From: Elusimicrobiota bacterium
GTDB lineage: Bacteria > Elusimicrobiota > Elusimicrobia > Elusimicrobiales > UBA9959
Direction: 5' to 3'
DNA length: 64,000 bases
Assembly (NCBI GenBank): GCA_016208085.1
Contig: JACQYT010000015.1
Span: 2,775-66,774 of the forward strand
This document shows positions 2,087 through 60,313 of this stretch, piece after piece; position 1 is the stretch's first letter, and each line of letters begins with the position of its first letter. Position numbers and translations under genes: made by a program. The notes under the pieces are model-generated. The model did no database searches. It was not told the DNA's origin and saw only the letters and a program-made list of their open reading frames with translations.

Positions 2087-2191
2087 AGGGCAGGGTACAG
2101 GGTAGAGGGGTCAGGGTATAGGGTTCATTTGGGGTAAGGAGTTCCATATTTCCGCACCCTATACCCTTTACCCTAACCCCTATACCCTACC
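2087..2191 (-). repeat. Class A word hairpin (GGGTA-type G-tract arm / TACCC-type C-tract arm) in the GT9 leader
   Basis: Arms 2087-2124 and 2156-2191. Inner 12 bp are a perfect complement (agggtatagggt/accctataccct); outer words are permuted. The loop carries ATGGAACTCCTTACCCC on the gene strand. Confidence 0.7.
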
Positions 2192-2453
2192 GTATCCGGT
2201 ACCTGGGGTCGTTGTACATTTTAAACTGGCGATAGATTTTAAGCCTGGTCCTGCCGGCGATCACGCTTTTAAACAGTCCGGTGAGTTCGGCTTCCAGATC
2301 GGTTTTCTGGACGTTAAGGACGGCGAGCCTTGAACCCGCCTCGTTTTTATGCGCGGCGTCCGCGTCCGGGCGCTGGAACTGCTCGGCCATGTGGCAGATT
2401 TTAAGCTGGATTATGCTGATCTTGTCCACCAGGCTGCCGATAGTCTCAGCCAT
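2187..2453 (-). CDS. Small helical protein, paralog of the upstream gene (possibly DUF4254-like; unverified)
   Basis: ORF 2187..2498; start taken at [24 protein letters not shown] overlaps the upstream stop as ATGGCTGA. Confidence 0.55.
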
Positions 2454-5040: not shown

Positions 5041-5110
5041 AGGGCAGGGTATAGGGTAGAGGGGTTAGGGTATAGGGTAAAGGAGTTTCTTATTTCTGTA
5101 CCCTTTCCCC
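5041..5110 (-). repeat. Class A word repeat, paralogous to 2087-2191
   Basis: ccataagggcagggtatagggtagaggggttagggtatagggt directly abuts the GT9 start. It is near-identical to the sequence abutting the other GT9 start at 2084. Short C-arm at 5099-5110. Confidence 0.7.
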
Positions 5111-5259
5111 GCTATGCTGTACAGAATAAAAATTATATCATTTGTAGAACAGTAAAAAAGCAAGAGAGCCGGACAGCGAGAAAGCAAGAAAGTAAAAAAG
5201 TTTTTACTGTCACGCTCTCCGGCTGTCGCGCTGTCACGCTACGCCTGAAACGAGACTCT

Positions 5260-7307: not shown

Positions 7308-10300
7308 ATGAGAATATTTAAAAACCTTGCGCTGACGCTCGGCTTGCTGGGCGTTTTCAACCTTTCAGTTTCCGCCGGGGAAATAAAGCCCGGCGCGGTT
7401 TCCGGTTCAATAAACTACCAGGGCCGCCTTGAACGGGATAATGCGCCCGTTACGGGCATCGTCCACCTGACATTCAGGATTTACAACGCCGCCGAAGGGG
7501 GGACTCTGCGCTGGCCGACGCCGGCCTGTCCGAGCTCTGAAATAACGGCGACCGCCACCCAGGGCATTTTCAGCGCCTCTATAGCCCCGTGCTGGGAGGT
7601 TTTTTCCCTGGCGGAACAGTTGTATCTGGAAGTGCAGGTGGAAAGCGACGTGCTGTCTCCGAGGGAGCCCTTGAACAGCGTTGTTTACGCCATGGTGGCC
7701 AAAAAGCTCGAGGACGGCTCTTCCATTTCAGTGACCACGCTGGCCGCGTCTTACCAGGTGCTGCTGGCCACGGTTTCCGGCAATGTCGGCATAGGCAGCA
7801 TGGCCGCAGCTCCGGATAAAAAGCTGACGGTAAACGGCGGCATCAGGATTTTAAGCGACGGGTATTATTTTCCGGACGGCACGCTCCAGAACACCGCCGG
7901 CGTGGCCGGCGCGGGCAACCTTTCTAATCCTTCGGACGCCGTCGTCACCTCCGACTCGGATAATTCCGGGGGCGGCGACATCATACTGCAGATCTACAGC
8001 GCCGAGCGGGCGCGCGTGCTGGCCTCCAACGGCAACCTGGGCGTGGGCGCGGCGGCGCCGTCGGAGAGGCTTGAAGTCAACGGGAACCTCGCCAACACGG
8101 CCGGCACTTTCGCCATATATTCCCGCGACTATCTCGTGTCCCGGCCGAGGGACGCGTCCAACGCGGTCTTCAGGCTGATGCCGAGGGACGATAATTCCGC
8201 CGCTCCCAGCTCCATCTCCGCGCTGGAACTTTACACGCTGACGGACACTTCCACGGGGACGCCGGTCAATTATACGCGCGGCGTTATGATTATGACCGCC
8301 AACGGCCTGGAATTTTACCAGGAAAAAGGCGGCGCCGGCTCCGAGCTGCCGATACTTTTCAAGACCGGCGGCGCGGAGCGCATGAGGATCGTCACCGGCG
8401 GCAACGTCAGCGTAGGCGGGCTGCCCAACCCCACCGATAATTTCCAGGCGGCGGGCGATATTTCGGCCAACACGGGCGTGCGCGGCGCGCGGGTGTCCAT
8501 AGGCGATTATTCCACCTGGACCAACCTGCCCAACGAGATCCGTTCCGAAGCCGGCTACCATCTTCTTCTCCAGCAGACGAATAGTTACAATGTGGGCATC
8601 GGCACCGACAGCCCAAAAGAGAAGCTGCATGTGCGCGGCAGCGTGATGGCCGACTACGGCATAAGCGCCGCCACCGCGGCTTTTTCGGATGCGGTGACCG
8701 TGGGCGCCAATTTCACCGCCAACTCCGGCCAGGGCAGCGTAGTGAAACTTTCCTCCACGGTGATATACGGCACGCTGACGGTGTACGGCGCCGTGGGTTC
8801 CGATAAGGGCTGGCCCGCTTACCTGGCGTCCACCCAGACTTTCACGGGGCAGAACACCTTCGCCAGACAGGTGGCGGCTTTAAGCGATCTTACCGTCGCC
8901 AACCGCCTGGGCGTCGGCGCGGCGGGCTTTAGCTTCGCGCCTTCGGAGTATCTGCAGGTAGGCGACGGCCTGGTCGCCAACGACGACGCCCAGGCGTATC
9001 TGATGTCCGGCGCCGGGACAGGTAATTCCAAAATATATTTTTACCGCGGACCGACGGAGGCGGCGCGCCTTGAGACCCAGAACGGCAGTAACCTCGCTCT
9101 CGTGGCGGGCAACACCAAGTCGCTGGTGGACTCGACCTACTACAGGATCTACAACAGCGTGTTCTGGGTCTCCACCGGCACCAACAACGCCACGCCTGCT
9201 ATATTCGTAAGCTCGTGGATGGGCAACGTAGGCGTCGGGACCGCGGTGCTTGACCCCAACTGGAAGCTTACCGTCAGCGGGAACATTAGGATCTCAGGGC
9301 CCGCTTCCAACGGCATTATTTTTGCCGACGGCACCACGCTGACCAGCGCCAATCTCGGCGGCATTTCGGCGGGCGCCATCTCGCATAATGAGGACGCTAT
9401 AGTGCAGTCGGACGCCGATCTAAACGGTTCCGGCAGCGTCGTGCTGCGCGCGGGCGCGCTGGACGGGCTGGCGCTGAACACGGGCGGCAACGTGGGCGTA
9501 GGCACGCTGTACCCGGTTGCGCGGCTCAATGTAAGGGGCGGGGACCTGGTGCTGGGCACGCCCTACAATCCTTACGCTTCCGACAGCAAGGAAGATCTGA
9601 TATTGGGCGGCAATTTGGTGGTGGACGGCAGCATAGAGCAGCGCGCGGCTTCAATGGCCATTTTCAGCGGGCTGACCGTCACCAATAATGTCTATCTTTC
9701 CACGGTCGCGGCCGCCAGGACCGGCATAGGCACGGACAACCCGCAATATAAGCTGGACGTCGTCGGCGACGTCAACCTGTCCGGCGCGTTAATGAGCGGC
9801 GGTACGCAGAGAATGTCGGCTACCGGCGTTTTATCCAACACGACCTGGAACGGCGCCACGATAACGGTCCCTTACGGCGGGACGGGCGTAACCTCGCTTA
9901 CTTCCGGCGGCATCCTTTACGGCAACGGAACCGCGGCGATTGCGCCCACGGCCGTGCTCGCCAACGGGCAGCTGCTCATCGGCGACGGTTCCGGCGCCCC
10001 TACGCTGGCCACGCTTACCCCGACCGCCAACCAGGTGAACGTCACCAACGCCGCGGGCGCCATAACCCTTTCCCTGCCGCAGGATATAAATAGCGGGGCC
10101 AGCCCGGCATTCGCGGGGCTGACCGTTGGTTCGCTCACCGGCGTCATTAAAGGAGCTACTGGAGTCTTAAGCGCCATGACCGGCACGACAAACCAAATCA
10201 CCCGCTGGTCTGACGCCGATACAATCGGCGCAAGTTCAATTCTAACGGATGACAGCGCCAGGTTCACCGTCTCGGCCCCTGCCGACCTTACCGGCTCCAT

Positions 10301-11333
10301 AACAACCGCTTCCAGCGGCACTTTCAGGTTAACCGGCGCAAACCAATACAGCATAGAAACAAGCTCCGGCATAAAAGTCAACAACGGCTTAGTGGCTACC
10401 CCTGCTTTCAGGATGACCACCGGGGCAAACGCTGATTATGTGCTTGTTTCCGACGGCAGCGGTAATGCCAAATGGTCGGCGGACACAGCCGGCGCCGCAA
10501 CTTATATTCAGGCTACTGTTGCAAGCAACGATTATATCAGAGTTAAGGGCGGAGGATCAAGTAATGCGGGTTGGCTGGAAATAGCCACCGGCGATGACGG
10601 GACGGAGCCGATATATGTAAGGCAGTATAACACAGTTCCATCCATTGTCAACGAAGCCGTATTATTGGATGGCTCCGGAAACACTTCCTTTCCCGGCACC
10701 GTCACCGCCCCTACCTTCAGCGGCAACGCGACTTCAGTGGATGGTTTTAGCGTCAACACAGCCTACAATGATTTTACCGGCAGTGAAATTCCGGTGCGCC
10801 ACGCCAGCGGCTACCTATACAGCAACTGGTTTAATATGGTCGCCAATGTCGAGACCACCAACCCCGAGTATCTGGTGGGGGAATGGGGCGGGGATAAATT
10901 TCTGCGCTACGTAACCCCCGCCAATGTCACCGTCGGCAATGTCAGCGGCATCGTGGCGGTCGCCAACGGCGGCACCGGGGCAACTACCCTGACCGGTGTG
11001 GTGCGCGGCAACGGTACCAGCGCTTTTACCGCTTCCGCCATAGTCGATGCGGACGTGCCGGACACCATCACGCTCACCGACATTACCCAGATTACCAACC
11101 GCGCCATAAGTGACACCTCCGGCACGCTGGCGGTCGGCCGCGGCGGCACAGGGCAGTCGACGTTAACATCCGGTTACGTATTGGTTGGAAACGGCACTAC
11201 CGCCGTAAACCTGGTCGCCGGCCTGACAGTTGCGGCCTTTCAGGTCGTGGGCTCCACAATAAGTTCAACTTGTTATGATTTGACTTTTACCAATGGCGTT
11301 CTCACCGGAAAAACCACAGTAACTTGTAATTAG
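7308..11333 (+). CDS. 1341-aa secreted fibre protein (tail-fibre-like repeats and C-terminus)
   Basis: Signal peptide; INYQGRL N-terminal module. Eight copies of the G-N-V/L-G-I/V-G-T...KL-V-G motif. C-terminus has WLEIATGDDGTEPIYVRQY and GGTGATTLTG / GGTGQSTLTSG motifs typical of phage tail fibres. RBS agggaga before the ATG. Confidence 0.85.
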   Translation: MRIFKNLALTLGLLGVFNLSVSAGEIKPGAVSGSINYQGRLERDNAPVTGIVHLTFRIYNAAEGGTLRWPTPACPSSEITATATQGIFSASIAPCWEVFSLAEQLYLEVQVESDVLSPREPLNSVVYAMVAKKLEDGSSISVTTLAASYQVLLATVSGNVGIGSMAAAPDKKLTVNGGIRILSDGYYFPDGTLQNTAGVAGAGNLSNPSDAVVTSDSDNSGGGDIILQIYSAERARVLASNGNLGVGAAAPSERLEVNGNLANTAGTFAIYSRDYLVSRPRDASNAVFRLMPRDDNSAAPSSISALELYTLTDTSTGTPVNYTRGVMIMTANGLEFYQEKGGAGSELPILFKTGGAERMRIVTGGNVSVGGLPNPTDNFQAAGDISANTGVRGARVSIGDYSTWTNLPNEIRSEAGYHLLLQQTNSYNVGIGTDSPKEKLHVRGSVMADYGISAATAAFSDAVTVGANFTANSGQGSVVKLSSTVIYGTLTVYGAVGSDKGWPAYLASTQTFTGQNTFARQVAALSDLTVANRLGVGAAGFSFAPSEYLQVGDGLVANDDAQAYLMSGAGTGNSKIYFYRGPTEAARLETQNGSNLALVAGNTKSLVDSTYYRIYNSVFWVSTGTNNATPAIFVSSWMGNVGVGTAVLDPNWKLTVSGNIRISGPASNGIIFADGTTLTSANLGGISAGAISHNEDAIVQSDADLNGSGSVVLRAGALDGLALNTGGNVGVGTLYPVARLNVRGGDLVLGTPYNPYASDSKEDLILGGNLVVDGSIEQRAASMAIFSGLTVTNNVYLSTVAAARTGIGTDNPQYKLDVVGDVNLSGALMSGGTQRMSATGVLSNTTWNGATITVPYGGTGVTSLTSGGILYGNGTAAIAPTAVLANGQLLIGDGSGAPTLATLTPTANQVNVTNAAGAITLSLPQDINSGASPAFAGLTVGSLTGVIKGATGVLSAMTGTTNQITRWSDADTIGASSILTDDSARFTVSAPADLTGSITTASSGTFRLTGANQYSIETSSGIKVNNGLVATPAFRMTTGANADYVLVSDGSGNAKWSADTAGAATYIQATVASNDYIRVKGGGSSNAGWLEIATGDDGTEPIYVRQYNTVPSIVNEAVLLDGSGNTSFPGTVTAPTFSGNATSVDGFSVNTAYNDFTGSEIPVRHASGYLYSNWFNMVANVETTNPEYLVGEWGGDKFLRYVTPANVTVGNVSGIVAVANGGTGATTLTGVVRGNGTSAFTASAIVDADVPDTITLTDITQITNRAISDTSGTLAVGRGGTGQSTLTSGYVLVGNGTTAVNLVAGLTVAAFQVVGSTISSTCYDLTFTNGVLTGKTTVTCN

Positions 11334-11384
11334 GGGGTATAGGGGGTGTATAGGGGACGTTTCTCAATATCTCAATAACTTTGT

Positions 11385-26013: not shown

Positions 26014-27120
26014 ATGCAGACGAACGCGCTAGCTGTGGTTCTTTTTATGGCAGGGCGCCTTGGCGCCCAGGAACTATCCAATCATGACCTGGGGCGCAAG
26101 GCGCTTGAAACAGCGGTGACGTATACCAAAAGCGCGGATTCCGATGTCCGAACTATGGCGGCCGAGGTCCTGGGCCAGACAGGCAATAAGTCCGCCGCGG
26201 GTCTCCTGAAAAAACTGCTCGCGGATCCGGACAAGCATACGCGCATCGCGGCGGCCGAGTCGCTGTGGAAACTGGGAGACACGGGCGGCTTTCAGGCCAT
26301 TTACGCCATTATCAACGATGTGCCGGCGCAGGGCCCCGTGGGAAACACCGCGCTGGTCGAGCTTAAAATAATTTCCCAGAACAAAATACGCGAGCATGCT
26401 ATAGAGGCGTACGCGCGGATAAAAGGGGAAAAAGCTTCGGAGCTTCTTTTCAAGCTTAAGAACGATACTTACGGTTCCATCCGGGATGTGGCAGCCAGGG
26501 AACTTTCCGGGCTTGGTTACTCCGACGAGATGGCGCAGTTCCTGGACGCGCTGGAAAGCGACGACGAAGCGATAAGGTATGCGAGCGTAAAAGTGTTCGC
26601 TAAGATCTGCAATTCCGACGCCGTGGAACCGCTTGGCGCCCTGCTTATGAAGGAGATGTCCAGCCGCGTCAGAATTGCGGCGCTTGACGCCCTGAAATGC
26701 ATGAGCGCCAGGAAGAATGCGCTGCCCCAACTGCTGAAGCTCGCGGATGACGCGAACCCCTCCATCCAATTCAAAGCGGTAGGGGTTTTAAGCGCCATAC
26801 GGGATAAAAAGGCTTTTGAAAAATTGGCGGGAATATACGGCGCGACGACCGACTTGAATCTGAAAGTCGCGACGCTCAAAGGGCTTATGAGCGGAGGCCG
26901 GGCGCCGGACAAGGACCTGCTTGACCTCGCTTTCGCCTCCGCCAATCCGGACGTTAAAACGGAAGCCCTTAAAGTGCTGGAAAACATGGCTGAAGCCGAG
27001 GTTAAGCCATACCTGCGGGATGCTTTAAGCGATTCCAGCGTCAATGTGAGACTGGCCGCGGCCCAGCAGATCCTGAAACGGTTCGCCAAGCAACAGGCGC
27101 AAAGCAGCGGCGCAAAGTGA
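26014..27120 (+). CDS. HEAT-repeat protein (PBS-lyase-type repeats)
   Basis: Repeated D..VR..AA..LG...A...L..LL.D units throughout the 368-aa ORF. Confidence 0.7.
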   Translation: MQTNALAVVLFMAGRLGAQELSNHDLGRKALETAVTYTKSADSDVRTMAAEVLGQTGNKSAAGLLKKLLADPDKHTRIAAAESLWKLGDTGGFQAIYAIINDVPAQGPVGNTALVELKIISQNKIREHAIEAYARIKGEKASELLFKLKNDTYGSIRDVAARELSGLGYSDEMAQFLDALESDDEAIRYASVKVFAKICNSDAVEPLGALLMKEMSSRVRIAALDALKCMSARKNALPQLLKLADDANPSIQFKAVGVLSAIRDKKAFEKLAGIYGATTDLNLKVATLKGLMSGGRAPDKDLLDLAFASANPDVKTEALKVLENMAEAEVKPYLRDALSDSSVNVRLAAAQQILKRFAKQQAQSSGAK

Positions 27121-27197
27121 CAGGGAAAAGGCTGAAGGATAAGCTTAAGGCTGAAGGGCATGAGGAGAAAAGAAAAGTATTTAAGGTGAATACTTTT

Positions 27198-30100
27198 ATG
27201 AAGACTTTAAAGGCGGATAACTTGTCTATTGCGCAGCGGCCGGCCGCGTCCTTGCAGATTTTAAATATAAAAAAACCGCTTTGGGTCCTGCTCTTTGTTT
27301 TTGCCTCTACCCTCTACCCTCTCCCCTCTGCCTTCTCCCCTGCTTTTGCGGCCGGGCCGCGCAATAAAAACGCGCGCAGAATCTCGCCGCTGTCCGATTC
27401 GCTCCGGAAAGTCGGCAAAACCCCCGATCGCGCCGCCCGGGAAGCTTTCCGTAAATTCGTTTCAAAAACAGGCAATTCGCCCTGGCGCGTGCGCTATAGC
27501 CCGAAAACCGCCCTGCCCGAAGCCGTGGTGGGCGGCAAAACCGGCAAATATCCGGGCGGACCCCAGGCCGCGGCCCTGGCTTTCTTAAACGACAATAAGG
27601 ACCTGTTCAAAGTGGACGTCTCCCAGCTCAAGCCGGCGTTCTCCAGGACCTTTCTGGGCGTGACCCACCTGCAGTATTCCCAGTTCTACAATTCCATACC
27701 TGTTGAGTTCGCTTATGTCAGGGTCCACGTTACCGCCTCCGGCGAAGTGACAGGCTGCCAGTCTAAATTTGAGCCGGATATAAATATCGCCGTACTGCCG
27801 TCCATTCCGGCTGATTACGCCGCCGGGATCGCTTCAGGCGACTCCGGCTTTAAGGCCAGGGCGCATAAACCGGAATTGGTCATATTTCCGGATGCCGACG
27901 CGGGCGGCGCCTTGAAACTGGCCTGGAAACTAAAGGTCAGGGCTGCGGATGCGGCCAGCGGCGTCTGGATCTATTACGTGGACGCCTCAAACGGCGGCAT
28001 TCTTTTTAAATATAACGACCTGCGCTATGTCTGCTCGGATAACACAAAATCCACCGGCACAGTTTCCGGCACGGTCTATGACATTTCGCCCTGGCCTGTC
28101 GGCGTAAGCAATAACGCCCCCTATTGGACCAAGCCGGTCTTAAGGCCCATAACCGATCAGTATGTCTGGATAGGAAGCTATCTAGACAAGACCATCACCA
28201 GGCCCCTGAACGCGACGAGCGCCGAATATTGCGGCGATCTGATCGGCAAGACCGGCAAGGCGTTCGCCTCGCTTAAAGGCCCTTATTTCGCCGTTACCAA
28301 TTTCAGGGGCCAGAGCGCTCATTTCGACAACGGCGGCGGAGTCTGGAAGGAGAGCCCTGTATCAAAACAAAGCCCGCATCCGTATGAAAATTCCTATACG
28401 TATCCTCCCTATACCGTGACTATTCCCGATACCTGGACGGCCGACGGAGATACTTTTGCCAAGGCGATGCCGCGCTTCGCCGCTTCCGTCTCCGACCCGT
28501 TCCAGGTGGGGGCTATGGATATTGAAGGCACGATAACCGACTGGGATGTGCTTACCATCAAGAACGCGGCGGGCAATATAGCGGGAAACTATACAGGTAA
28601 AAGAACCAAGCCGTTTTACGGCGCGGCGGTTGAAAGCCCTGAATACAGCGTTAATCTCAAAACCGATGAAACCGGCGTCTATAACGGCTTTTCCATAGAC
28701 AGCTCAAGATACCTGGTACTGACCGATAATCCGCCCGGCGAAAACAATCTCACCGGCTCAATCGTCTGGTCCACCACGACCGCGGGGATCAATATGGACA
28801 CGAGCGCAGGCGTGGAAAACGCGCTGGACGAAGTAAACGCTTTCTACCATTTAACCAAAGCCCGCGATTATTTCGGCACTGTCAATAAAGACCCGAATAA
28901 CGGCGGCGCCGCGGCGGCCGACCTTTTAAAACAGGTGCCAGTGATGGTGCACGCGCACGGCACCGCGGACAATCTCTGCGCGCCCGGCAGCGCCGGCGGC
29001 GGGGATTGCGTCGGCGGGATGATGAACGCCTGGTACGACGCGGAAGGCGACAACCTCGTCTTCGGCGACGGCCCTATGGACGAATACGGCAATTACCGCT
29101 CTTTCGCGCTGGACGGCACCATCGTCCGCCATGAATACACCCACCTGGCAGTCAACCGAATCTATCCTGTCATCAATTTCGGGGAATTCGGGGCTATTTC
29201 CGAGGCGCTGGCGGATTATTTTTCCCTCGCGTCTTTCCGGGCCGGCGGAGCCGATCTGGATATTATCGGTAATTTCCTCGGCTCCGGATACCGCGATTTA
29301 TCAGGCGGCGCAGGCATAAAGAAAATGCCGGGGGATTGGACGGGAGAAGTGCACGACGACAGCCTGATCCTGTCCCAGGCCTTATGGAGGCTGAAAAACA
29401 GCACGCCGACGACCACCACGGACCTCGGGAACTTCTCCGCTTCAATCTATTTTCCGAATATGCCCCGGTCCGACGTGTTCGTTTATACCGCGCTGTTCTA
29501 TTTTCCGGATAATTTCGCCAATTTCTATGACGCCATGATCGAGGCCTGCAAACAGCTGCCCGGCAGCGGCTGCGACGCGGCCATGCAGAACAAGATAACC
29601 CTCGCTTTTTCGTCGCATGCCATAGCGGGCATACAGGCCGGGGGCGACGCCTTCGAGGGGAACAACGGCCCCGAATGGGCCACGGATATAAGCACGCTGT
29701 CTTCTCTTTCAGCCACCATTGCTCCCGTCGGAGACCTGGATTATTATTCAATACCGCTTGCGGCCGGAAATTTCACCGCCCGCCTGGACCTGCCCGCGAG
29801 CAGCGCTTACCTCTACCAGGCCTACTCCCTGTTCCTTTTTGATAATTTACGCAATTACATAACGCAATACGAGCCCGTGATCTACGGAGGCGGCGCCTGC
29901 CGCGATACCGGCCCCTGCTATACGGAGGCGGCCGGCGTTACGCTCAACTATAATGTCGCCGCGGCGGGCCGCTATTACCTGGTGGTCGCGGGTTCTCTTA
30001 ATCAATGGGGCGGCAATTCCCAGGCCAGCTCCCAGGTTCCGTACAGGCTGAACCTTTCCTATACGCCCAAAGGTTCCGCGAACGCGGCGATAGCCGCCGC

Positions 30101-30764
30101 CGTTTACGATAACGACACGATAAGTTTTACCGTGCCGTATCTTAAAGCCGCGATGGAGCTTCACCCGTCTTCCACGACCCCGGACATCCCGCCGGGGGTG
30201 GAAACGGTGTTTCAATACGCCCAGCTGCGCGATCATAACTACGTTCCGCTGGCCCTGGCCAGGACGGATACCGGCAGTTATCTTGAAGTGGACCTCAGCA
30301 GCCTGAGATACGACGATAAGGTTGATAACCGCGAGGTACTCAAAGGCAGCGTAAGACTTAAACCGGGTTTTGCCAGCCGCTATCCGGGAGTGGGAACGGT
30401 CTATCTTGAGATATTCGGCCGCAATCATATGGGCAGGGTCATGTCAATGGGCGTTTCTAACGCCATAAATCTTTCCACTAATAAATCCGCCGCGACGGCT
30501 TACAATAACATCATAACGGGCGCCGGCTCACGGGCGATAATAAAATACGACGTGCTGACGGCAGGAACCCTGTCCATAAAAATATATACCGCTGCCGGCA
30601 CGCTGGTAAAAACAGTTTATGACGGCCCCGTGCCGGCGGGCAAAGGCACCGTAGACTGGGATGGAACCAACAGCAAAGGCTCCAAAGCGGCCAGCGGCAT
30701 CTATTTCCTGAAGGTATCCGGCGCGGGCCTCAATACGGTGGATAAGATAGCGGTGGTTAGGTAG
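27198..30764 (+). CDS. Secreted thermolysin-like (M4-type) zinc metalloprotease with propeptide, PPC-like domain and T9SS-type CTD
   Basis: HEYTHL...GAISEALADYF aligns with thermolysin HELTH...GAINEAISDIF. FTP/PepSY-like N-terminal region; DLDYYSIPLAAGNFTARL PPC-like. C-terminus LSIKIYTAAGTLVKTV...ASGIYFLKV...KIAVVR. Start taken at MKTLKADN (27198) within ORF 27117..30764. Confidence 0.8.
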   Translation: MKTLKADNLSIAQRPAASLQILNIKKPLWVLLFVFASTLYPLPSAFSPAFAAGPRNKNARRISPLSDSLRKVGKTPDRAAREAFRKFVSKTGNSPWRVRYSPKTALPEAVVGGKTGKYPGGPQAAALAFLNDNKDLFKVDVSQLKPAFSRTFLGVTHLQYSQFYNSIPVEFAYVRVHVTASGEVTGCQSKFEPDINIAVLPSIPADYAAGIASGDSGFKARAHKPELVIFPDADAGGALKLAWKLKVRAADAASGVWIYYVDASNGGILFKYNDLRYVCSDNTKSTGTVSGTVYDISPWPVGVSNNAPYWTKPVLRPITDQYVWIGSYLDKTITRPLNATSAEYCGDLIGKTGKAFASLKGPYFAVTNFRGQSAHFDNGGGVWKESPVSKQSPHPYENSYTYPPYTVTIPDTWTADGDTFAKAMPRFAASVSDPFQVGAMDIEGTITDWDVLTIKNAAGNIAGNYTGKRTKPFYGAAVESPEYSVNLKTDETGVYNGFSIDSSRYLVLTDNPPGENNLTGSIVWSTTTAGINMDTSAGVENALDEVNAFYHLTKARDYFGTVNKDPNNGGAAAADLLKQVPVMVHAHGTADNLCAPGSAGGGDCVGGMMNAWYDAEGDNLVFGDGPMDEYGNYRSFALDGTIVRHEYTHLAVNRIYPVINFGEFGAISEALADYFSLASFRAGGADLDIIGNFLGSGYRDLSGGAGIKKMPGDWTGEVHDDSLILSQALWRLKNSTPTTTTDLGNFSASIYFPNMPRSDVFVYTALFYFPDNFANFYDAMIEACKQLPGSGCDAAMQNKITLAFSSHAIAGIQAGGDAFEGNNGPEWATDISTLSSLSATIAPVGDLDYYSIPLAAGNFTARLDLPASSAYLYQAYSLFLFDNLRNYITQYEPVIYGGGACRDTGPCYTEAAGVTLNYNVAAAGRYYLVVAGSLNQWGGNSQASSQVPYRLNLSYTPKGSANAAIAAAVYDNDTISFTVPYLKAAMELHPSSTTPDIPPGVETVFQYAQLRDHNYVPLALARTDTGSYLEVDLSSLRYDDKVDNREVLKGSVRLKPGFASRYPGVGTVYLEIFGRNHMGRVMSMGVSNAINLSTNKSAATAYNNIITGAGSRAIIKYDVLTAGTLSIKIYTAAGTLVKTVYDGPVPAGKGTVDWDGTNSKGSKAASGIYFLKVSGAGLNTVDKIAVVR

Positions 30765-30906
30765 GGTAGAAGGGAAAAGGTAGAGGGGAGAGGAAGAAAG
30801 AGTTGGCGGATTTATGCATATTTCCAATTATAAAAGGGAACATATTCTTGTCCCGGCATTTCTGCTGGTTTTTACCCTCTCCTTTCTAACCTCTACCCTC
30901 TACCCT
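30762..30906 (+). repeat. Class A word hairpin spanning the protease stop and the PorV-like start
   Basis: G-arm 30762-30797 begins with the TAG stop. The loop holds ATG 30814. C-arm 30873-30906 encodes FTLSFLTSTLYP of the signal peptide. Confidence 0.7.
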
Positions 30907-31998
30907 GTCTTCGCGGGCGGGCCCGGTTCCGCCGGCGTCCAGGTTTTAAAGACCGATATCGGCCCCAGGGCCATGGGCATGGGCGGCGCTTTTGTGCCGG
31001 CGGCGGACGATATTTATTCCGTGACTTATAACCCGGCCGGCCTGGGCCGGCTTTATCTTCCCGAAATTTCGGCGATGTATCTTTCCGGCTTTTCCGACGC
31101 AAAGCTCCAATTTCTGGGTTATGGCATGCCGCTGCCGATCAACGGCCTGATCGGTCTTGACAAGCCCGGCGTGGCCGTTTCGGCCATACTCTCGCAGAGC
31201 GGTAATTTTACGCACCGCCGCATAAATGACGACGGCTCCATTTCGTCCAGGAGCATGGACGCCGAAGGCACAAAAGTATTTGCTTTGAGCTACGGCGAAA
31301 GGGTATATTCAGCGGAGATGAAGATAGAGGGTTATGAAGCCAGGATCGATCAATTCCTGGGCCTCTCGGCCAAGTACGTAAAATCCGAACTGCTGGGAAC
31401 CTACCCCGCTTCGGCCCTGGCTTTCGACGCGGGCTGGCTGCTGGTGGAGCCCGGGCTCGGTCTTACGTGCGGCGCTTCTCTTTCAAATTACGGGGGCAGT
31501 ATAAAATATCTGGAAGAATCCTATCCCCTGCCGTCCATAATGCGGCTGGGCCTGTCCTGGCAGCGGCCCACCATAATGGACCAGTCCGTCCTGCTGGCCC
31601 TAGAATATGACTTCTATACGAACGAGGGAATCAAAAGTTTCAAGGGCGGACTTGAATATCATTTCCAAAAGTTACTCAACGCGCGTTTCGGTTATAAAGC
31701 CGTGGACGATAATAAAGGCCTGACCCTGGGCGTCGGCGTGCGCCACGAGGGCTTCGCGCTGGATTTTGCCATGTCACTTGCCAATGAAGTCTTCAATTCC
31801 TCACAGGCGTCCTTCAGCTATAAATTCGCGGGCTGGCGCATCAGGGAATATAAAAAGTCCGTACAGTACCGCGATCAGGAAGAAAATAAGCCGCCGCCCA
31901 AAAAAGTGGACAAACCCGCCAAAAAAGAACCGGCCCGGCCGAAAAAACCGCAGGAACCCGGTCAGAAGAAAGATTCCGATTTCTTCATGCTTTATTAA
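30814..31998 (+). CDS. PorV/PorQ-like outer-membrane beta-barrel with Lys/Pro-rich C-terminal tail
   Basis: N-terminal GPRAMGMGGAFVPAADDIYSVTYNPAGLG pattern; alternating beta-strand sequence; tail KPPPKKVDKPAKKEPARPKKPQEPGQKK. Confidence 0.6.
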   Translation: MHISNYKREHILVPAFLLVFTLSFLTSTLYPVFAGGPGSAGVQVLKTDIGPRAMGMGGAFVPAADDIYSVTYNPAGLGRLYLPEISAMYLSGFSDAKLQFLGYGMPLPINGLIGLDKPGVAVSAILSQSGNFTHRRINDDGSISSRSMDAEGTKVFALSYGERVYSAEMKIEGYEARIDQFLGLSAKYVKSELLGTYPASALAFDAGWLLVEPGLGLTCGASLSNYGGSIKYLEESYPLPSIMRLGLSWQRPTIMDQSVLLALEYDFYTNEGIKSFKGGLEYHFQKLLNARFGYKAVDDNKGLTLGVGVRHEGFALDFAMSLANEVFNSSQASFSYKFAGWRIREYKKSVQYRDQEENKPPPKKVDKPAKKEPARPKKPQEPGQKKDSDFFMLY

Positions 31999-32359: not shown

Positions 32360-32809
32360 ATGAAAAAAACGATGGCGATACTGGCTTTCGCGATACTGGC
32401 GTGCGGCTGCGCTTCTTCGCCCAATAAAAGCGTGGTTTCAAAAGATGGAGAAATAGAAAGGGAATGGGTCGAGGAAGGCATCACCAAAACCGCGATCTTC
32501 GCCCGCGGCATAGGCGCCGCCGATCAGACGCTGGAAAATAAGACCCAGCGCATGGCCACTTCCAAAAACGCCGCTATAGTCGGCGCCCAGTACAATATGC
32601 TGTCTTTTGTTAAAGGCGTCAGCCTTGAGGGCGGCATAACGGTTGAGAAAGCCATAGAGACCGATTCGGTGCTCGCCACCAAAATAGACGGCATTATCAA
32701 AGGCGCGCTGGTGGTTCGGACCAACTGGACCCCGGACGACGGCTGCGTGGTGATCTTAAAGCTTCCCAAACAGGTTCTTAAAGACTCCGGCGTAAAGATA
32801 CAGGAATAG
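32360..32809 (+). CDS. LPP20-family lipoprotein
   Basis: Lipobox ILACGC; ARGIGAADQT...RMATSKNAAIVGAQYNMLSFVKG pattern. Confidence 0.65.
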   Translation: MKKTMAILAFAILACGCASSPNKSVVSKDGEIEREWVEEGITKTAIFARGIGAADQTLENKTQRMATSKNAAIVGAQYNMLSFVKGVSLEGGITVEKAIETDSVLATKIDGIIKGALVVRTNWTPDDGCVVILKLPKQVLKDSGVKIQE

Positions 32810-32832
32810 CGCCGGCGCAAAAGGCCCTCATA

Positions 32833-33906
32833 ATGAAAAGATATACGCATATCTTGTGCGTCGGTTTTTTTGCCCTCCTTGTCGGCGGGTGCTCGGGCGC
32901 CCGCAGGTCCGCCCTTAACAGCGCGTACGAAACCGAGGTGGTGGAGGCGGAAGGCCAGGCCCCGATAGTCAACGGCGACGCGCAAGGGGCGAAGAAGACG
33001 GCGCTCCACGAGGCGATGAAGAGCGCCCTGGGGCTGGTGGTCGGCATCTACGTCTCGCAGGAGGCCATGGTTTCAAAGGCCGTCCTGATAGACGATACCA
33101 TCACTTCGCAGACCGAAGGCTACATCGAGAAATACGAAACGCTAAAAGAAGAAAAGACCGGAGATTCCTACAAGATCAGGATACGGGCGCACGTGCGCAA
33201 AGAGGATATCTCCGCCAAGCTCAAAAACCTTGAAAGCGAACCGCAAAAACTGGGGAACCCCGTTATCGGCTTTGAGATAAAGGAGGTCGTAGACGGGAAA
33301 ACCCAGGAAACCGATTACGCGGAACTGGAACTTAAAAACACGTTTACGAACGCCGGGTTTATGACAGGCGAAAAAGAGAAAGCCGACGTCCTTATAAAAG
33401 GCCTGGTCAAATCCGATTTCAACACCAAGGAAGGCCTGGGCGGTTTTATCTCATACAGGGCGGGGCTGTCGGTGGACGCCGTTAAGCAGGGTTCGGGTGA
33501 AACGCTTGCCGCGCTGCAGGAAACAACCGGCGGCATAGATCTGAACGAATCGGCCGCCGCCAGGGCCGCCATCATTAACGCGGCCAGAAGGGCCGGCGAG
33601 GAGCTGAAAGAGAGGGTGCTTAAGGGTCTGCGGGAAAAATCAGTGGTAAGGCTTTCTCTTTCAAAAGTGGACGGCATGAACCAGTTGAGCGATTTTTTAA
33701 AGTCCCTCAGGAACATCCCGATGGTGCGGGACTGCTGGCTGAGGTCTTTGACGGGGAATACGGCCGCCATAGACGTGGGGCTGCGCAAAGGGAACGCGTC
33801 GGATCTCTCCCAGTTGCTGATGAAGAACGCGCGGTTCCCAGTGAAGATAAACAGGACCTCGTCATACGACCTTGAAGCCGAACTTGAAGCGGCTGCAGGG
33901 AAATAA
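32833..33906 (+). CDS. Lipoprotein with FlgT-N/LPP20-like N-terminal domain
   Basis: Lipobox LLVGGCSG; AEGQAPIVNGDAQGAKKTALHEAMKSALGLVVG pattern. Confidence 0.5.
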   Translation: MKRYTHILCVGFFALLVGGCSGARRSALNSAYETEVVEAEGQAPIVNGDAQGAKKTALHEAMKSALGLVVGIYVSQEAMVSKAVLIDDTITSQTEGYIEKYETLKEEKTGDSYKIRIRAHVRKEDISAKLKNLESEPQKLGNPVIGFEIKEVVDGKTQETDYAELELKNTFTNAGFMTGEKEKADVLIKGLVKSDFNTKEGLGGFISYRAGLSVDAVKQGSGETLAALQETTGGIDLNESAAARAAIINAARRAGEELKERVLKGLREKSVVRLSLSKVDGMNQLSDFLKSLRNIPMVRDCWLRSLTGNTAAIDVGLRKGNASDLSQLLMKNARFPVKINRTSSYDLEAELEAAAGK

Positions 33907-33908
33907 AA

Positions 33909-33987
33909 CAGTTGATAATTTGATAAGTGGGAACGGCAGTTGACAAATAGAAAAGTTGCGGCACTTATCAACCAGTCAACTTATAAC
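33909..33987. repeat. Class D hairpin (GTTGATAAGT family), copy 1
   Basis: gttgataatttgataagtg ... cacttatcaaccagtcaac, between convergent stops. About 85% identical to the reverse complement of 35700-35775. Confidence 0.7.
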
Positions 33988-33992
33988 TTCCC

Positions 33993-34730
33993 TTACTTTT
34001 TATCGCGCTTTTCAAGCCTGTCTTTTATCCGCTTTTCACGGGCCCTTAATTTTTTATCCTGCTCGTTAAGAAAATCGTCTATATAGCCTTCCCGGGCCGC
34101 CAATTTCCGGCGAAGCGTGTCGGCGTATTTCTGAAGCTTGACATAACGCCGCTGTTCCGCCTGCATAAACTTTGAAAAACGTCCGCTTACTTTCACTTCG
34201 GCGTCGGCGCCCACCAGCGCCTCTTTTCCGGGATTCAGGCTTGTTTCCTTTCCGGCCGCCGTTACGTCCAGCGCGCCCTCAAAAAGGCCTATATTGGAAA
34301 TGTCCGATGAGACCACGATGGTAAAGCTTGTCCCGCGCACCGCGCACACGGCCCGCGGAGTTTTCACTTCAAGTCTGGAAATTTTTTCCTTCAGCTTGGG
34401 GATCAGCCACATTATTTTGCCCTTTATCAGATTGAAGACGTAATTGCGCCCGTCTTTTTCAAGCTTCAGCGTTTCCACCACGGTTTCGGAATTACTATCA
34501 AGGTCGATCAAGGTGCCGTCCCCGGCGAGGATTTTACAGAAACCTTTCGCCCCGGTCTTTACGCGCGAGCCTTCTTTAAGCGGCGCCGGTTTAGCCAGGG
34601 TCTGCCAGACGGCGGAACCCGGCTCAAGCAGGAGCACCGGGCCTTTGTATTCATAGACGCATGCCGTTTCCGCCCGGCATAAACCCGTCAAAAACCCCGT
34701 CAGCATAAGCGCGGCCAGAATTCTTTTCAT
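33993..34730 (-). CDS. FecR-domain protein (secreted)
   Basis: Start at MKRILAALMLTGFLTGLCRA with a GGAGGC RBS; FecR-like LKEGSRVKTGAKGFCKILAGDGTLIDLDSNSETVV; basic coiled C-terminus. Confidence 0.65.
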   Translation of the reverse strand: MKRILAALMLTGFLTGLCRAETACVYEYKGPVLLLEPGSAVWQTLAKPAPLKEGSRVKTGAKGFCKILAGDGTLIDLDSNSETVVETLKLEKDGRNYVFNLIKGKIMWLIPKLKEKISRLEVKTPRAVCAVRGTSFTIVVSSDISNIGLFEGALDVTAAGKETSLNPGKEALVGADAEVKVSGRFSKFMQAEQRRYVKLQKYADTLRRKLAAREGYIDDFLNEQDKKLRAREKRIKDRLEKRDKK

Positions 34731-34839
34731 TTTGCCTCCAGAAATTAGCAATCCTTTTTTAACAATTAAAATATACAATATATGAAGCGCTAATAAAAAC
34801 GGCACCAGCAGGCGGTCAAATTTCCTGGGAGAAGAATCC

Positions 34840-35694
34840 GTGAACTTTTTCAGATTACGCATAACAAATACGCTGCTGGTCCTGCTTATAGGCCTCATCC
34901 TCGGCTATCTCATAAAAGATCGCCTGGGCACGAAGGAAGCGGATCGTTATATCCCCATATATCCCCGCGGCCATATTGCGGCTAAACCGGCCCCGGACGA
35001 TAGTTTTGAAACCCTGGCCGCAAAAGATCCGGCGGCCGGCGACCGCTGGATGTCCGCTTCAACCGGGAGCCGGGCGGTTTCACCCCGGGCGAAAACCAGG
35101 GAGACCGCGGAGGATTTCGTTCTGCCGGTCAAGCCCGGGCCCGAAGCGGATTATGATATTACCTATAGCCGAAGCGATTTTCAGACCAGCGCCGGATTCA
35201 CGGGACCGTCTCAGGCCTATGGCGGCGCCGTATCAGGGCCTATGGCCTTCGGACGGCCAAAAACCTCCGGCCTGCAACCCTCCACAGGGGCCGCCCCGCA
35301 AACCCCCGGGGCCGCGGACGGGCCGCCGGCCAGGGCCGCCGACGCGGAAAATAAAGACGACGTAGTCAAAAACGCTGAAGAGGGTTTCTTTAAAAATCCG
35401 GAGCGCTACGCCGCGCAGGACCTTGAGCTGGAACTCCAGATGATCCTGGCCAGAAAAACGCAGAACGGCTGGCTGCTTAATTTTGTGCACGCCCGCGGCG
35501 GGAAAAACGTGGACTATGTCTATATGGAAGACGATTTCCTACTGGGCGAAAAACCGGAGCTTAAGATCGGCTACTTTTACAATGTCACGTTCAAATGCGC
35601 GAAAGGAGACTTAAGCGCCGGCAATAAACTGCTTGGGATAAATCCGAGCGGCAAGAAAGCCGCCTGGGCCACCGGAGTGAGCGCGATAGAATAA
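34840..35694 (+). CDS. Membrane-anchored Pro/Ala-rich hypothetical protein
   Basis: GTG start after GGGAGAAG; TM LLVLLIGLILGYLI; low-complexity middle; folded-looking C-terminal about 90 aa. Confidence 0.5.
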   Translation: MNFFRLRITNTLLVLLIGLILGYLIKDRLGTKEADRYIPIYPRGHIAAKPAPDDSFETLAAKDPAAGDRWMSASTGSRAVSPRAKTRETAEDFVLPVKPGPEADYDITYSRSDFQTSAGFTGPSQAYGGAVSGPMAFGRPKTSGLQPSTGAAPQTPGAADGPPARAADAENKDDVVKNAEEGFFKNPERYAAQDLELELQMILARKTQNGWLLNFVHARGGKNVDYVYMEDDFLLGEKPELKIGYFYNVTFKCAKGDLSAGNKLLGINPSGKKAAWATGVSAIE

Positions 35695-42330: not shown

Positions 42331-42333
42331 AAA

Positions 42334-42407
42334 CAGGGTATAGGGGTTAGGGTAGAGGGTAGAGTTATAAGGAACTCCTTACCCTAAACCCTCTACCCTA
42401 TACCCTT
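42334..42407 (+). repeat. Class A word hairpin after fba
   Basis: G-arm cagggtataggggttagggtagagggtagag; loop ttataaggaactcc; C-arm ttaccctaaaccctctaccctataccctt. Confidence 0.7.
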
Positions 42408-57654: not shown

Positions 57655-59064
57655 ATGCCACCGGTAATTATGCTTTTGTTGTTAATCACACAACTCGTTC
57701 TGAGCGGAATAGCGGCTGCCGCCGTTTCCCAGGGCGGCGAATATTCCCTTTACCCCCGGATATTTTCTAACGGCGCGGCAATTGACAGGACTTCGGGAGA
57801 ATACTCCGCCTCCTTCGCCATAGCCCAGCAGAATCCGACAGGCGAGCCTGCCGAAGACGAATATTCGGCCGCGCTGGGTTTCTACAGCGGGCTCGGAAGC
57901 GGAGCGCCTCCGCAGATACTGAACCTGGGCAGCGCAATCGCCGGTGCGCTGGGGCCTGAGGTTTCCGGCTTCAAGCTTGGAGTCCCCCGGTTGTCCACCG
58001 TTTCACTGCAGTTCGACGAAGATATGCTGAGCGAGTCTTTTGCCTCCGCCATTAAGCTTACCGCGATACGGGACAGGAACGGCCGGCAGATAATTTCGGA
58101 ACTGCCGGCCGGCTATTCCTACGATCCGCAAAACAGGACGCTGGAGATCTGGCCCATAAGCGGGTCATGGAGCGGAAATACCTTCCACGAACTCACCATC
58201 TCAACTTCGGTCATCGACTACCAGGGGCTTTCCCTGGCGCAGGCCCTGGAGTTCCGTTTTGTGACGATGCTTGAAGCCGGCCAGGATAACACCGTGGTTT
58301 CCCCCGACGGCGCGGCCAGGATAATCCTGCCCGCGGGAGCGCTCCAAAAAGACGCTTACCTGGTATTCAACAGTTCGCCGTCGGAAAGTCCGCGCCGGGT
58401 GGACCCGGGGAAGCTCCAGGCGGCCACCGCGAAGCTCCAGAGCAGCAGGGGGAAATTCTATCTGCCCTACGCTTTCAACGAAATAAACGCCTACGATGCC
58501 CAAAACAGCCTTCTCTCCGGCAATTTTGCCAAACCCGGCCGTTTAACGCTTTTCTATCCGGATGCGGATTCGGACGGCCTTGTGGATTCGGCTGCGACGC
58601 CGATAAAGCAGAAGAACAGTTCGCTTTACTGGCTTGACGAACCAAGCGCTATGTGGGTGAAGCTGCCGGATTCCGGCGTGAACGCCGTCGACAGGCAGGT
58701 CACGGCAAGCGTGCCTCATTTTACGGTCTTTGCGGCAGTCGGCAGCGCGGAGTTTTCGGCACAGGACGCGTTCGCCTACCCGGTGCCTTTCCGCCCGCAC
58801 GGGCCTAACGCCGGCACGGGGGCGGGGCAAACCGGCGCCGAGTCCTCCGGCATCACTTTTATGAATCTCCCTTCGGAGGCTGAAATTTCCGTTTTCAACG
58901 CCAGGGGCGAGCTGGTCTGGAAAGGCCGGGACTCCGACGGGGACGGCAAGCATGTCTGGAACGTGAAGAACGACGACGGGTTTGCGGCCGCAAGCGGCGT
59001 TTATTTTTACGTTGTCCGCAGCGCGCGGGATTCAAAGACCGGTAAGCTGGTGATAATAAGATAG
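57655..59064 (+). CDS. Secreted Ig-like (SbsA/Big_5-type) protein with T9SS-type CTD
   Basis: Signal peptide; GEYS repeats; VSLQFDEDMLSESFASAIKL Ig-like domain. C-terminus AYPVPFRP...ISVFNARGELVWKG...ASGVYFYVV...GKLVIIR. Confidence 0.75.
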   Translation: MPPVIMLLLLITQLVLSGIAAAAVSQGGEYSLYPRIFSNGAAIDRTSGEYSASFAIAQQNPTGEPAEDEYSAALGFYSGLGSGAPPQILNLGSAIAGALGPEVSGFKLGVPRLSTVSLQFDEDMLSESFASAIKLTAIRDRNGRQIISELPAGYSYDPQNRTLEIWPISGSWSGNTFHELTISTSVIDYQGLSLAQALEFRFVTMLEAGQDNTVVSPDGAARIILPAGALQKDAYLVFNSSPSESPRRVDPGKLQAATAKLQSSRGKFYLPYAFNEINAYDAQNSLLSGNFAKPGRLTLFYPDADSDGLVDSAATPIKQKNSSLYWLDEPSAMWVKLPDSGVNAVDRQVTASVPHFTVFAAVGSAEFSAQDAFAYPVPFRPHGPNAGTGAGQTGAESSGITFMNLPSEAEISVFNARGELVWKGRDSDGDGKHVWNVKNDDGFAAASGVYFYVVRSARDSKTGKLVIIR

Positions 59065-59262
59065 GGTAGAGGGTAGAGGGTTTAGGGTAGAGGGTTTAGG
59101 GTAGAGGGGGGAAAAGACGGACGAAGATTAGAGCAGACGAAGAAAAATTGTAAAGCGGAACAGGGCGAATTTTATGAATACTTTAACGCATAACAGAAAC
59201 CGCGCTTTTATCCCGGCATTTCTGTTTGCCTGCACCCTATCCCCTATCCCCTCTACCCTAAC
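59062..59262 (+). repeat. Class A word hairpin spanning the CTD-protein stop and the PorV-like start
   Basis: Seven GGG tracts at 59064-59110, starting in the TAG stop. The loop holds ATG 59174. C-arm 59233-59262 encodes CTLSPIPSTLTP. Confidence 0.7.
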
Positions 59263-60313
59263 CCCTGTTTTCGCCGGCAGTTCCGCCGGGGCCACGGCAA
59301 TGAGCTTTCTGCGCATGGACCCCGCCGCCCACCAGACCGGCATGGGGGGGGTGGGAGTGGGGCTTTTTGAGAATCTTCAGAACATGTCCTACAACCCCGC
59401 CCTGCTCGGGATGCTGAAGCACAACGAGCTGGTCTTCTCGCACGCCAACTGGCTGGTTGATTCCAGGTTCCAGGACGTGGCGTTCGCTTTCGCCACCCGC
59501 TCTAAAGGCACTTTCGGCGTGAGATATAAAACTTTCAGCTACGGCTCAATAGATTCCTACGACGCCGCGGGCGGGAAGCTGGCTTCTTTCAAGGCGCGCG
59601 ATTCCCTTATTTCCGCAAGCTGGGGCGCGCAGCTTGAGCGCGTGCACGGCATCTGCGCCGGGATAACGATACGCCAGGCGACGCAGGACCTGTCTTTCGT
59701 TTCCGCCGGCGCCGTCATGGCCGACGCCGGTTTTTCCATGCTCCCTTTCAAAGAGCGGCTCAACGGAGCTTTTTCCTTCGGCGCGGCGGCTAAAAACCTG
59801 GGGCAAGAAGTAAAGTTTGACCGGGAAAGCGAATACTTGCCGTCCACGCTGGATTTCGGCTTCGGCTGGACGGGGTTGCTGGAAAGGCTGTCCGCCGGGG
59901 TGGACGTTCACATGCCGAAAGCGCAGGGTATCTATTACAGCGCCGGCGCCCAGTACAGGGCGGCCGACATGCTGGACCTGCGGGCCGGCTTTGAAACCGG
60001 CCAGGAACAGGGCTCGGGTCTGCGCCTGGGAGCGGGCGTCAACTTCGGAGCCTGGCAGCTGGATTACGCCTGGCTCCCGTTCGGACTTCTCGGCGACACC
60101 CACCACGCGAGCCTGCTGTACAGATTCGGGGGGCCGGCCGAATCCGCTTATGCGGCGGGTCTGAAGGCGCTGCGCAAGACGAGGTACGCCGAGGCGGTGC
60201 TTTATTTCGCAACGGCGCTTGAAGAGGACCCGACGATGGACAAAGCGGCGCTGAAACTGAAAGCTGCGCACAAACTGCTTCAGGAACAAAAGGAGCTGAA
60301 AGAGGCGCCATGA
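59174..60313 (+). CDS. PorV/PorQ-like outer-membrane beta-barrel with C-terminal TPR-like helix pair
   Basis: Paralog of 30814..31998 (IPAFLF...PVFAG signal peptide, HQTGMGGVGVG...YNPALLG). C-terminus AGLKALRKTRYAEAVLYFATALEEDP. Confidence 0.6.
   Translation: MNTLTHNRNRAFIPAFLFACTLSPIPSTLTPVFAGSSAGATAMSFLRMDPAAHQTGMGGVGVGLFENLQNMSYNPALLGMLKHNELVFSHANWLVDSRFQDVAFAFATRSKGTFGVRYKTFSYGSIDSYDAAGGKLASFKARDSLISASWGAQLERVHGICAGITIRQATQDLSFVSAGAVMADAGFSMLPFKERLNGAFSFGAAAKNLGQEVKFDRESEYLPSTLDFGFGWTGLLERLSAGVDVHMPKAQGIYYSAGAQYRAADMLDLRAGFETGQEQGSGLRLGAGVNFGAWQLDYAWLPFGLLGDTHHASLLYRFGGPAESAYAAGLKALRKTRYAEAVLYFATALEEDPTMDKAALKLKAAHKLLQEQKELKEAP

Follow-up and report, generated by a model that had tools for sequence, protein, structure and literature searches.

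In a 64,000-nucleotide (nt) stretch of DNA from an uncultured groundwater Elusimicrobia bacterium (hereafter the window), the junction between a secreted zinc metalloprotease gene, the cargo, and a PorV/PorQ-family outer-membrane protein gene, the barrel, is predicted to form a long imperfect mRNA hairpin whose two arms are built from the same seven-nucleotide words. The upstream arm begins at the cargo stop codon, the downstream arm lies within the signal-peptide codons of the barrel, and the start codon of the barrel is located between them. We see about an even chance that this word-built intercistronic hairpin, reminiscent of both repetitive extragenic palindromic (REP) elements and the Haemophilus influenzae hmw hairpin, tunes the expression of cargo versus barrel. 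Positions are counted from the first letter of the window; WIN denotes the window junction, and labels such as L001 and L006 denote the loci of relatives. The relatives of the barrel protein were all found in metagenome-assembled genomes (MAGs) of Elusimicrobia.

The cargo gene (27198..30764, + strand) encodes a protein of 1188 residues. Its open reading frame covers 27117-30764, with a likely start at ATG 27198 and the stop codon TAG at 30762-30764. The protein has an FTP propeptide motif, an HEYTH motif at residue 645, and a C-terminal FlgD_ig/T9SS-like domain with the terminal residues ...DKIAVVR, and matches the Pfam families FTP and FlgD_ig (42 bits versus a cut-off of 27). Its C-terminus scored 18.4 bits against the type IX secretion system's type A sorting domain (TIGR04183), below the cut-off of 23. 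The barrel gene (30814..31998, + strand), the ATG of which is 49 bases past the cargo stop, encodes 394 residues and matches the PorV/PorQ family NF033709 of NCBIfam with 104.4 bits against a cut-off of 90. Its signal peptide of 34 codons (30814-30915) reads MHISNYKREHILVPAFLLVFTLSFLTSTLYPVFA and is followed by the conserved mature start GGPGS. A scan for sigma-70 promoters and terminators between the two genes revealed no convincing promoter or intrinsic terminator, and the two genes are assumed to be co-transcribed.

An inverted-repeat finder located two arms of 31 nt each, which are 77% complementary and separated by 82 nt. The 5' arm (30763..30793, + strand) is a purine- and G-rich imperfect heptamer array of GGGTAGA-type words that begins at the cargo stop codon, and the 3' arm (30876..30906, + strand) is a C-rich heptamer array with words ending in CCCT. 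The words are GGGTAGA, GGGTATA and GGGTTTA together with their complements; there are about five imperfect words, and only two perfect tandem copies are present. The 3' arm corresponds to barrel codons 21-31, encoding the signal-peptide residues TLSFLTSTLYP, which are followed by VFA and GG with the predicted cleavage site between them; the C/T-rich words of this arm supply codons for Leu, Ser, Pro, Thr and Tyr. The hairpin interior (30794..30875, + strand) contains a Shine-Dalgarno (SD)-like GGCGG at 30805-30809, ATG 30814 and barrel codons 1-20, which make up the n-region and the first part of the h-region of the leader. The initial annotation had described a G arm at the protease TAG and a C arm in the barrel signal-peptide codons, with the ribosome-binding site (RBS) region and ATG 30814 in the loop and the same words in permuted, imperfectly pairing order; the coordinates above bear out each of these points, although its spacing of about 75 nt has to be corrected to 82 nt. 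The 5'-arm words of array-bearing junctions hold TAG, TAA or TGA in several frames (e.g. window 30762-30796, L006:5932-5985 and L012:5937-5985), and the complements of these stop-rich words, in the 3' arm, read as Leu and Ser codons that suit a signal peptide.

Folding predictions agree with this arrangement. The minimum-free-energy fold of 30740-30930 indeed pairs the two arms, as the initial annotation had supposed, with an energy of -72 kcal/mol compared to a mean of -59.2 kcal/mol for shuffled sequences (z -2.9; 1 of 200 shuffles was as good). The 281-nt context of the junction gave a fold z of -2.25, and the RNA from the stop codon to the mature start gave -3.3, whereas the two arms alone form a predicted duplex of -45.8 kcal/mol. 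A scan of the region against Rfam returned only sub-threshold look-alikes of plant miRNA precursors, which are generic long hairpins. By these predictions, the hairpin is real, in that it folds better than chance.

Comparison of orthologous junctions showed that the arms stay matched as the words differ. We collected 62 distinct junctions that combine a barrel with a protease ending in DK[IV]xKIAV[VI]R-stop. Arrays are present in 14 of them, and in 8 of these 14 the RNA from stop codon to mature start folds with an outer stem beyond shuffles, the fold z-scores being -3.3 for WIN, -6.7 for L001, -4.7 for L086, -4.5 for L087, -5.7 for L088, -4.1 for L006, -2.7 for L012 and -4.1 for L080. The matched words are GGGTAGA/TCTACCC in WIN, L086, L087 and L088, GGGGCTA-GGGGATA/ATCCCCT-GGCCCCT in L001, CCGGTAA/GGTTACC in L006, CAGTGG/CCACTG in L012, and GAAGAGTAAAG/CTTTACTCTTC in L080, which belongs to a GAAGAGT vocabulary. 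Between the sister species WIN and L001, complementary changes have occurred in both arms (CTACCCT/AGGGTAG versus ATCCCCT/AGGGGAT). The register of the 3' arm and the leader length of 102 nt (34 residues) are identical in 13 junctions, and the encoded signal-peptide residues track the word, giving TLSPLPSTLTP, FILATGYWLPVTGYA and FILCAVHYPLPTAYA, and also LATGYWLPVTG and CAVHYPLPT. The leader of L090 has 27 residues; it is shorter by 21 nt, i.e. three words, and the frame is kept.

A second cargo/barrel junction in the window (59062..59270, + strand) has the same architecture, with a fold z of -2.86. Its G-array (59064-59111) begins where cargo 2 (57655-59064) ends, at the stop codon, ATG 59174 of barrel 2 is located in the loop, and the C-array (59235-59265) lies in the signal-peptide codons. 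Barrel 2 is a paralog of barrel 1, sharing 25% identity. Among its orthologs, L093, the protein of which is 86% identical, has the matched words TAGGTAG/CTACCTA (z -4.9), and L095 has GGAAGGCTAC/GCCTTC (z -7.8); L094 is weak (z -0.7), and L096 has a plain spacer of 25 nt. A CCCTTTACCC sequence at 57746 was also considered as a leader array of cargo 2 and was rejected, for cargo 2 has an ordinary signal peptide.

Pairing between the arms was then scored across junctions. As RNAduplex on stretches of 95 x 80 nt was non-discriminating, with shuffles reaching -40 to -75 kcal/mol, local complementarity scores were used instead. A 10 x 10 matrix in which each 5' arm was scored with every 3' arm gives a sum of 210 for the cognate pairs, compared to 119 ± 15.6 for random pairings, and 0 of 20000 random pairings reach 210. 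Moreover, each vocabulary other than the GGG type pairs best with its own partner. Judged from these sequence comparisons, the pairing is either maintained or repeatedly regenerated across species. In L095 (1501-1670), an ATG and the cargo stop overlap as ATGA, and the purine arm there shares the barrel frame (MKVREGYGRLGKAMESYGRLRKVMESS...). The 5' arm of L095 may accordingly encode the charged n-region and its 3' arm the hydrophobic h-region, placing both arms in one signal peptide; since complementary strands encode residues of opposite hydropathy, a hairpin of this kind could on its own encode both regions, the charged one and the hydrophobic one.

We propose that the hairpin tunes cargo versus barrel expression. 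The 5' arm fills the spacer straight after the protease stop codon, and the 3' arm has found room in the back half of the barrel signal peptide, where sequence is tolerated, so that the barrel RBS region and AUG come to lie inside the 82-nt interior. Over time, words have been replaced mainly through slippage in the unconstrained 5' arm, and the 3' arm has followed via substitution or in frame-preserving steps of 21 nt, with the register and the 34-residue leader fixed. On the cargo-barrel transcript, a stem of ~30 bp would block 3'-to-5' decay and favour the cargo message, and ribosomes initiating on the barrel would have to melt a strong stem at codons 17-31, which would damp barrel output. 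The shielding of the message and the block to elongation would jointly set the cargo:barrel expression ratio. In addition, a ribosome terminating on the cargo would cover about twelve nucleotides at the beginning of the 5' arm, loosen the base of the stem and ease barrel translation. The stem might also serve as a substrate of RNase III, for which an imperfect stem of 30 bp is plausible.

Parts of this architecture resemble known systems. The nearest case to have been studied by experiment is the 5'-untranslated region (5'-UTR) of H. influenzae hmw1A, where ten ATCTTTC heptamers pair with a G-rich arm, and the resulting hairpin is cleaved by RNase III (PMC12721329). Expression of hmw1A depends on the structure rather than on G-richness, although a G-quadruplex was considered there (PMC12721329). 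The junction described here is similarly predicted to pair a C/T-rich heptamer array with a G-rich arm, giving an mRNA hairpin that is long and imperfect, and likewise stands ahead of a gene in a cargo/barrel-type surface secretion locus. However, the hmw repeats are perfect, comprise at least 11 ATCTTTC copies, lie in the 5' arm of the 5'-UTR and vary in copy number within populations, whereas the present junction has ~5 imperfect words, places its G-rich arm ahead of the C-rich one, has the latter in signal-peptide codons and has the start codon between the arms; at the contig level, four samples show no length variation.

In E. coli, the intercistronic palindrome REP325 acts as a stabiliser of the upstream mRNA and as an attenuator (bioRxiv 10.64898/2026.03.23.713779). 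Like REP elements and bacterial interspersed mosaic elements, the hairpins of the window are dispersed palindromic repeats at gene junctions, with a stable stem directly after the upstream stop codon, and a plausible role would be to protect the upstream mRNA and damp the downstream gene. Compared to REPs, which are extragenic, have a conserved sequence of ~35 nt and are mobilised by RAYT transposases, the copies here share words rather than one consensus, and their vocabulary varies from site to site, orthologous sites being unrelated. Moreover, the 3' arm at 30876-30906 is coding, specifying residues 21-31 of the signal peptide.

Mazel et al. reportedly described heptanucleotide arrays in cyanobacteria in 1990, the short tandemly repeated repetitive (STRR) sequences. 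These also consist of short tandem arrays of 7-nt words that are dispersed and mostly intergenic, but they belong to another phylum, use other words and are not described as paired inverted arrays around a start codon or in signal-peptide codons. The CTCTT repeats of Neisseria opa genes (PMC3960869) are likewise short and pyrimidine-rich, have a unit length that is not a multiple of three, and occur in the signal-peptide codons of outer-membrane proteins. They differ in being perfect, numerous, hypervariable and frameshifting (PMC3960869), whereas the present words are imperfect, sit in a leader with a constant length of 34 codons and have a complementary partner upstream.

Several observations weigh against a selected role of the hairpin in expression. 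In 39 of the 62 orthologous junctions, the spacer is at most 30 nt long (median 21.5 nt), the signal peptides are ordinary and Ala-rich, and arrays are absent; in such short-spacer junctions, the complementarity between upstream sequence and leader is no better than in shuffles. The earlier expectation of complementary arms at orthologous junctions thus holds for array-bearing junctions, even where the words differ, but fails for these 39. As they lack the hairpin, the coupling of cargo and barrel must be independent of it, and from the sequences compared, the hairpin is a lineage-specific add-on rather than the core cargo-barrel link. It is also patchy on the tree of barrel proteins: L003, the sister of L086, has no arms, whereas L090, L014 and L015 bear arrays inside arm-less clades. 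L090 has a long 5' arm facing just 13 nt of 3' arm. In L002, L004 and L082, the 5' arm has GTG words, as in L012, whereas the 3' arm has CCC words, leaving one mismatch per word, and the folds (z -1.9 to +0.1) are no better than shuffles. The persistence of out-of-step arrays in three species indicates that pairing is not strongly constrained everywhere; by their words, these three junctions seem to be in transition, the freely slipping 5' arm having changed ahead of the other. The cargo signal peptides of WIN and L001 contain C-arrays that lack a good partner. Finally, the stretch was found in four groundwater metagenome runs and in no RNA run, and template switching in quasipalindromes could keep the arms complementary without any function.

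The main rival explanation, templated mutation without a selected role, follows from this last point. The arrays would be self-propagating neutral passengers, expanding by slippage, kept palindromic by hairpin-templated template switching and surviving only at tolerant sites, namely in the spacer and towards the end of the signal peptide; we regard this as possible, yet somewhat unlikely. Template switching in quasipalindromes is an established mutational route to palindrome correction (PMC7202029). The patchy distribution, the decayed or one-armed versions (the L002 group, L090, L014 and L056), the partnerless C-arrays in cargo signal peptides, the dispensability of the hairpin in most orthologs and the recurrence of the same word hairpins at many unrelated intergenic sites all fit such an origin. 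By contrast, neutrality does not readily account for an architecture that persists at two junction families through at least six vocabularies with register and leader length fixed, nor for the compensatory transversions between the sisters WIN and L001. Furthermore, a stem of about -46 kcal/mol within the first 31 codons would be unlikely to be neutral for expression. Among the arm mismatches, sense-strand G.U outnumbers A.C by 25 to 11 (p 0.03; 45 other mismatches), a weak hint of RNA-level selection; nevertheless, the excess is small, the junctions are related, and a transcription-linked C-to-T bias could yield the same, which tells against a selected role as well.

Alternatively, the 5' arm, the translation start, the 'MNTLKHNRKRAF..AFLFAF' leader and the 3' arm might be exchanged as a block among secreted-protein genes, a reading that we consider rather unlikely in its own right. 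The DNA of the barrel-2 leader in the window (59152-59239, MNTLTHNRNRAFIPAFLFAC...) is 82-87% identical to the barrel-1 leaders of L087, L088 and L012, although the mature barrels are just 25% identical, and the nearest barrel-2 ortholog, L093, has an unrelated leader (L093:195-330) and vocabulary. The leader profile also matches the start of the cargo protease in L001, with an E-value of 1.5e-13. L003 lacks the leader along with the arms, in contrast to its sister L086, and the armed L090, L014 and L015 stand among arm-less species. These similarities suggest that the leader block is modular, a hairpin-framed start plus leader being exchangeable between secreted-protein genes. On the other hand, the mean leader DNA identity among barrel-1 orthologs (0.69) is about as high as in the mature part (0.70), neither a transposase nor a target duplication was seen, and recombination through conserved flanks could give the same pattern. 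Block exchange does not exclude the tuning of cargo and barrel expression. The two might even be combined, in that the hairpin would frame a portable 'secretion leader' cassette moving or converting as a block, with its arms kept complementary by RNA-level selection, possibly for hmw-like RNase III processing; we find this composite version rather doubtful too. The cargo protease of L001 (2437-2540) begins with the barrel-type leader MNTVKCNRKRAFILTCLFAFTLSPIPSTLYPVFA, which has a C-array and only a degenerate upstream arm (tagtggctgagtagttacgg).

The initial annotation had favoured a translational switch, in which the hairpin hides the barrel RBS and start codon and only cargo translation or read-through of its stop codon opens them. 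In WIN, the interior GGCGG and AUG are indeed mostly paired, with probabilities of being unpaired of 0.19 and 0.07, respectively, and the stem starts exactly at the cargo stop codon. However, the SD and the AUG are in the loop, outside the conserved stem, and their local pairing is not conserved: the probability that the AUG is unpaired ranges from 0.05 to 0.72 across orthologs, and the sole helix in the consensus interior is the 6-bp ACAGAA/UUCUGU downstream of the AUG, which leaves both AUG and SD unpaired. Masking of a downstream SD and AUG by a conserved helix, as in translational-coupling hairpins, was not found across the orthologs examined. Read-through of the TAG would reach the next in-frame stop after 22 codons, out of the barrel frame, and most orthologs, as described above, have a short spacer and no hairpin. 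Such a switch is therefore improbable, and neither start-codon sequestration as a conserved feature nor coupling by read-through is retained.

A contingency locus, with the barrel switched on and off either by 7-nt words slipping within the signal-peptide codons or by the interior being inverted, is very improbable. The C/T-rich signal-peptide repeats do recall the opa coding repeats (PMC3960869), and exactly 21 nt, the length of three words, separate L090 from its leader relatives. Nevertheless, no more than two perfect tandem copies are present in WIN, 13 species share a leader of exactly 102 nt, and the arms, being only 77% alike, are poor substrates for recombination; in addition, the four metagenome samples contain one identical form without indels or strand-switch joints, a contig-level result in which rare length or inversion variants are invisible.

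Folding of the G-rich arm into a G-quadruplex that blocks ribosomes or polymerase, the other structure suggested in the initial annotation, is hardly credible: the second junction of the window and several compact copies have at least four G3 runs, and the possibility was raised for the G-rich hmw arm too (PMC12721329), but 30762-30800 has three G3+ runs instead of the four of the canonical motif, and 5' arms of CCGGTAA, CAGTGG, GAAGAGT, TAGGTAG or GGAAGGCTAC words, which cannot form a G-quadruplex, keep their partners, so that it is complementarity rather than G-richness that is conserved across species. A conserved SD or standby site in the purine arm was ruled out by the non-purine vocabularies (CCGGTAA and CAGTGG).

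If the stem does tune the protease:barrel ratio, it would represent a second, independent case of heptamer-hairpin control at a surface-secretion locus after H. influenzae hmw, in an uncultured phylum. Structural constraint here overrides peptide sequence, with a nucleic-acid word dictating the back half of a signal peptide. The concerted change of words in two arms, one of them coding, with register and leader length constant, is unusually clear, and with these junctions one can ask, in a concrete system, whether selection or templated mutation keeps families of palindromic repeats palindromic. For annotation, the arrays account for signal peptides of odd, low complexity in these genomes and for spurious start codons.

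The first junction is not a stand-alone device but one site of a family of heptamer-word hairpins across the window. With at most one mismatch, GGGTAGAGGG occurs 28 times at nine sites in the 64 kb, compared to 3.3 occurrences expected. In a compact intergenic hairpin at 42333..42405, a loop of 17 nt (TTATAAGGAACTCCTTA) joins the G-array to the C-array that follows it. For the minus-strand gene 1137-2147, another compact hairpin (2093..2192) lies immediately upstream of what is probably the true start. ATG 2147, in the loop of this hairpin, was rejected as the true start, as the product, apparently of glycosyltransferase type, looks to begin at an internal MDPKRILLIVFKGIGDV; the longer start is probably spurious. 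A third compact hairpin (5043..5113), with a long G-array and a short C-arm, adjoins the start of the minus-strand gene 3531-5039. The C-array in the cargo signal peptide (27299..27345, + strand; ASTLYPLPSAFSP) has no good upstream partner, and a hairpin at the cargo's own start was dismissed, the fold of 27115-27360 giving a z of +1.09. A lone G-array without a partner arm (11333..11356, + strand) overlaps the last stop-codon base of a fibre gene of 1341 residues.

In the four metagenomes, depths of 300-700 were reached by arm-family 31-mers, compared to 8-15 for the genome; this excess is 20-60-fold, and other organisms may contribute to it. Other metagenome copies of the arm family carry the compact loop TAAGGAGTTC. 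The compact class-A loops (window 2126-2160 and 5078-5105) share TAAGGAGTT...(C/T)ATTTC(T/C)G(C/T)ACCCT, and the 3' part of compact loops resembles the barrel leaders just ahead of the C-array (GGCATTTCTG[TTTGCCTG]CACCCT). Judging by this resemblance, compact elements and leader hairpins may be derived from one another. Near the junction of L012, which has CAGTGG words, there are also a compact hairpin of the GGGTAGA class and a pair of GTCACAA/CTTGTGA words (9004-9092 and 11058-11240). Several vocabularies thus coexist in one genome, each of them arm-matched.

The gene order protease, barrel, 148-residue protein, 352-residue protein and FecR gene is common to the window (32360-34898), L088 (4375-6816) and L089. 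The 352-residue protein downstream of the barrel is FlgT_N/LipL46-like, and the FecR gene is divergent in the window and in L088/L089. The public MAG contig of L015 opens with an Illumina adapter (acactctttccctacacgacgctcttccgatct; L015:1-35) fused to the barrel leader, an assembly artefact. In L032 (3620-3793), a spacer of 170 nt has a different word hairpin, of CAGAATTC/GAATTCTG words, that is located wholly upstream of the ATG, and the signal peptide is ordinary.

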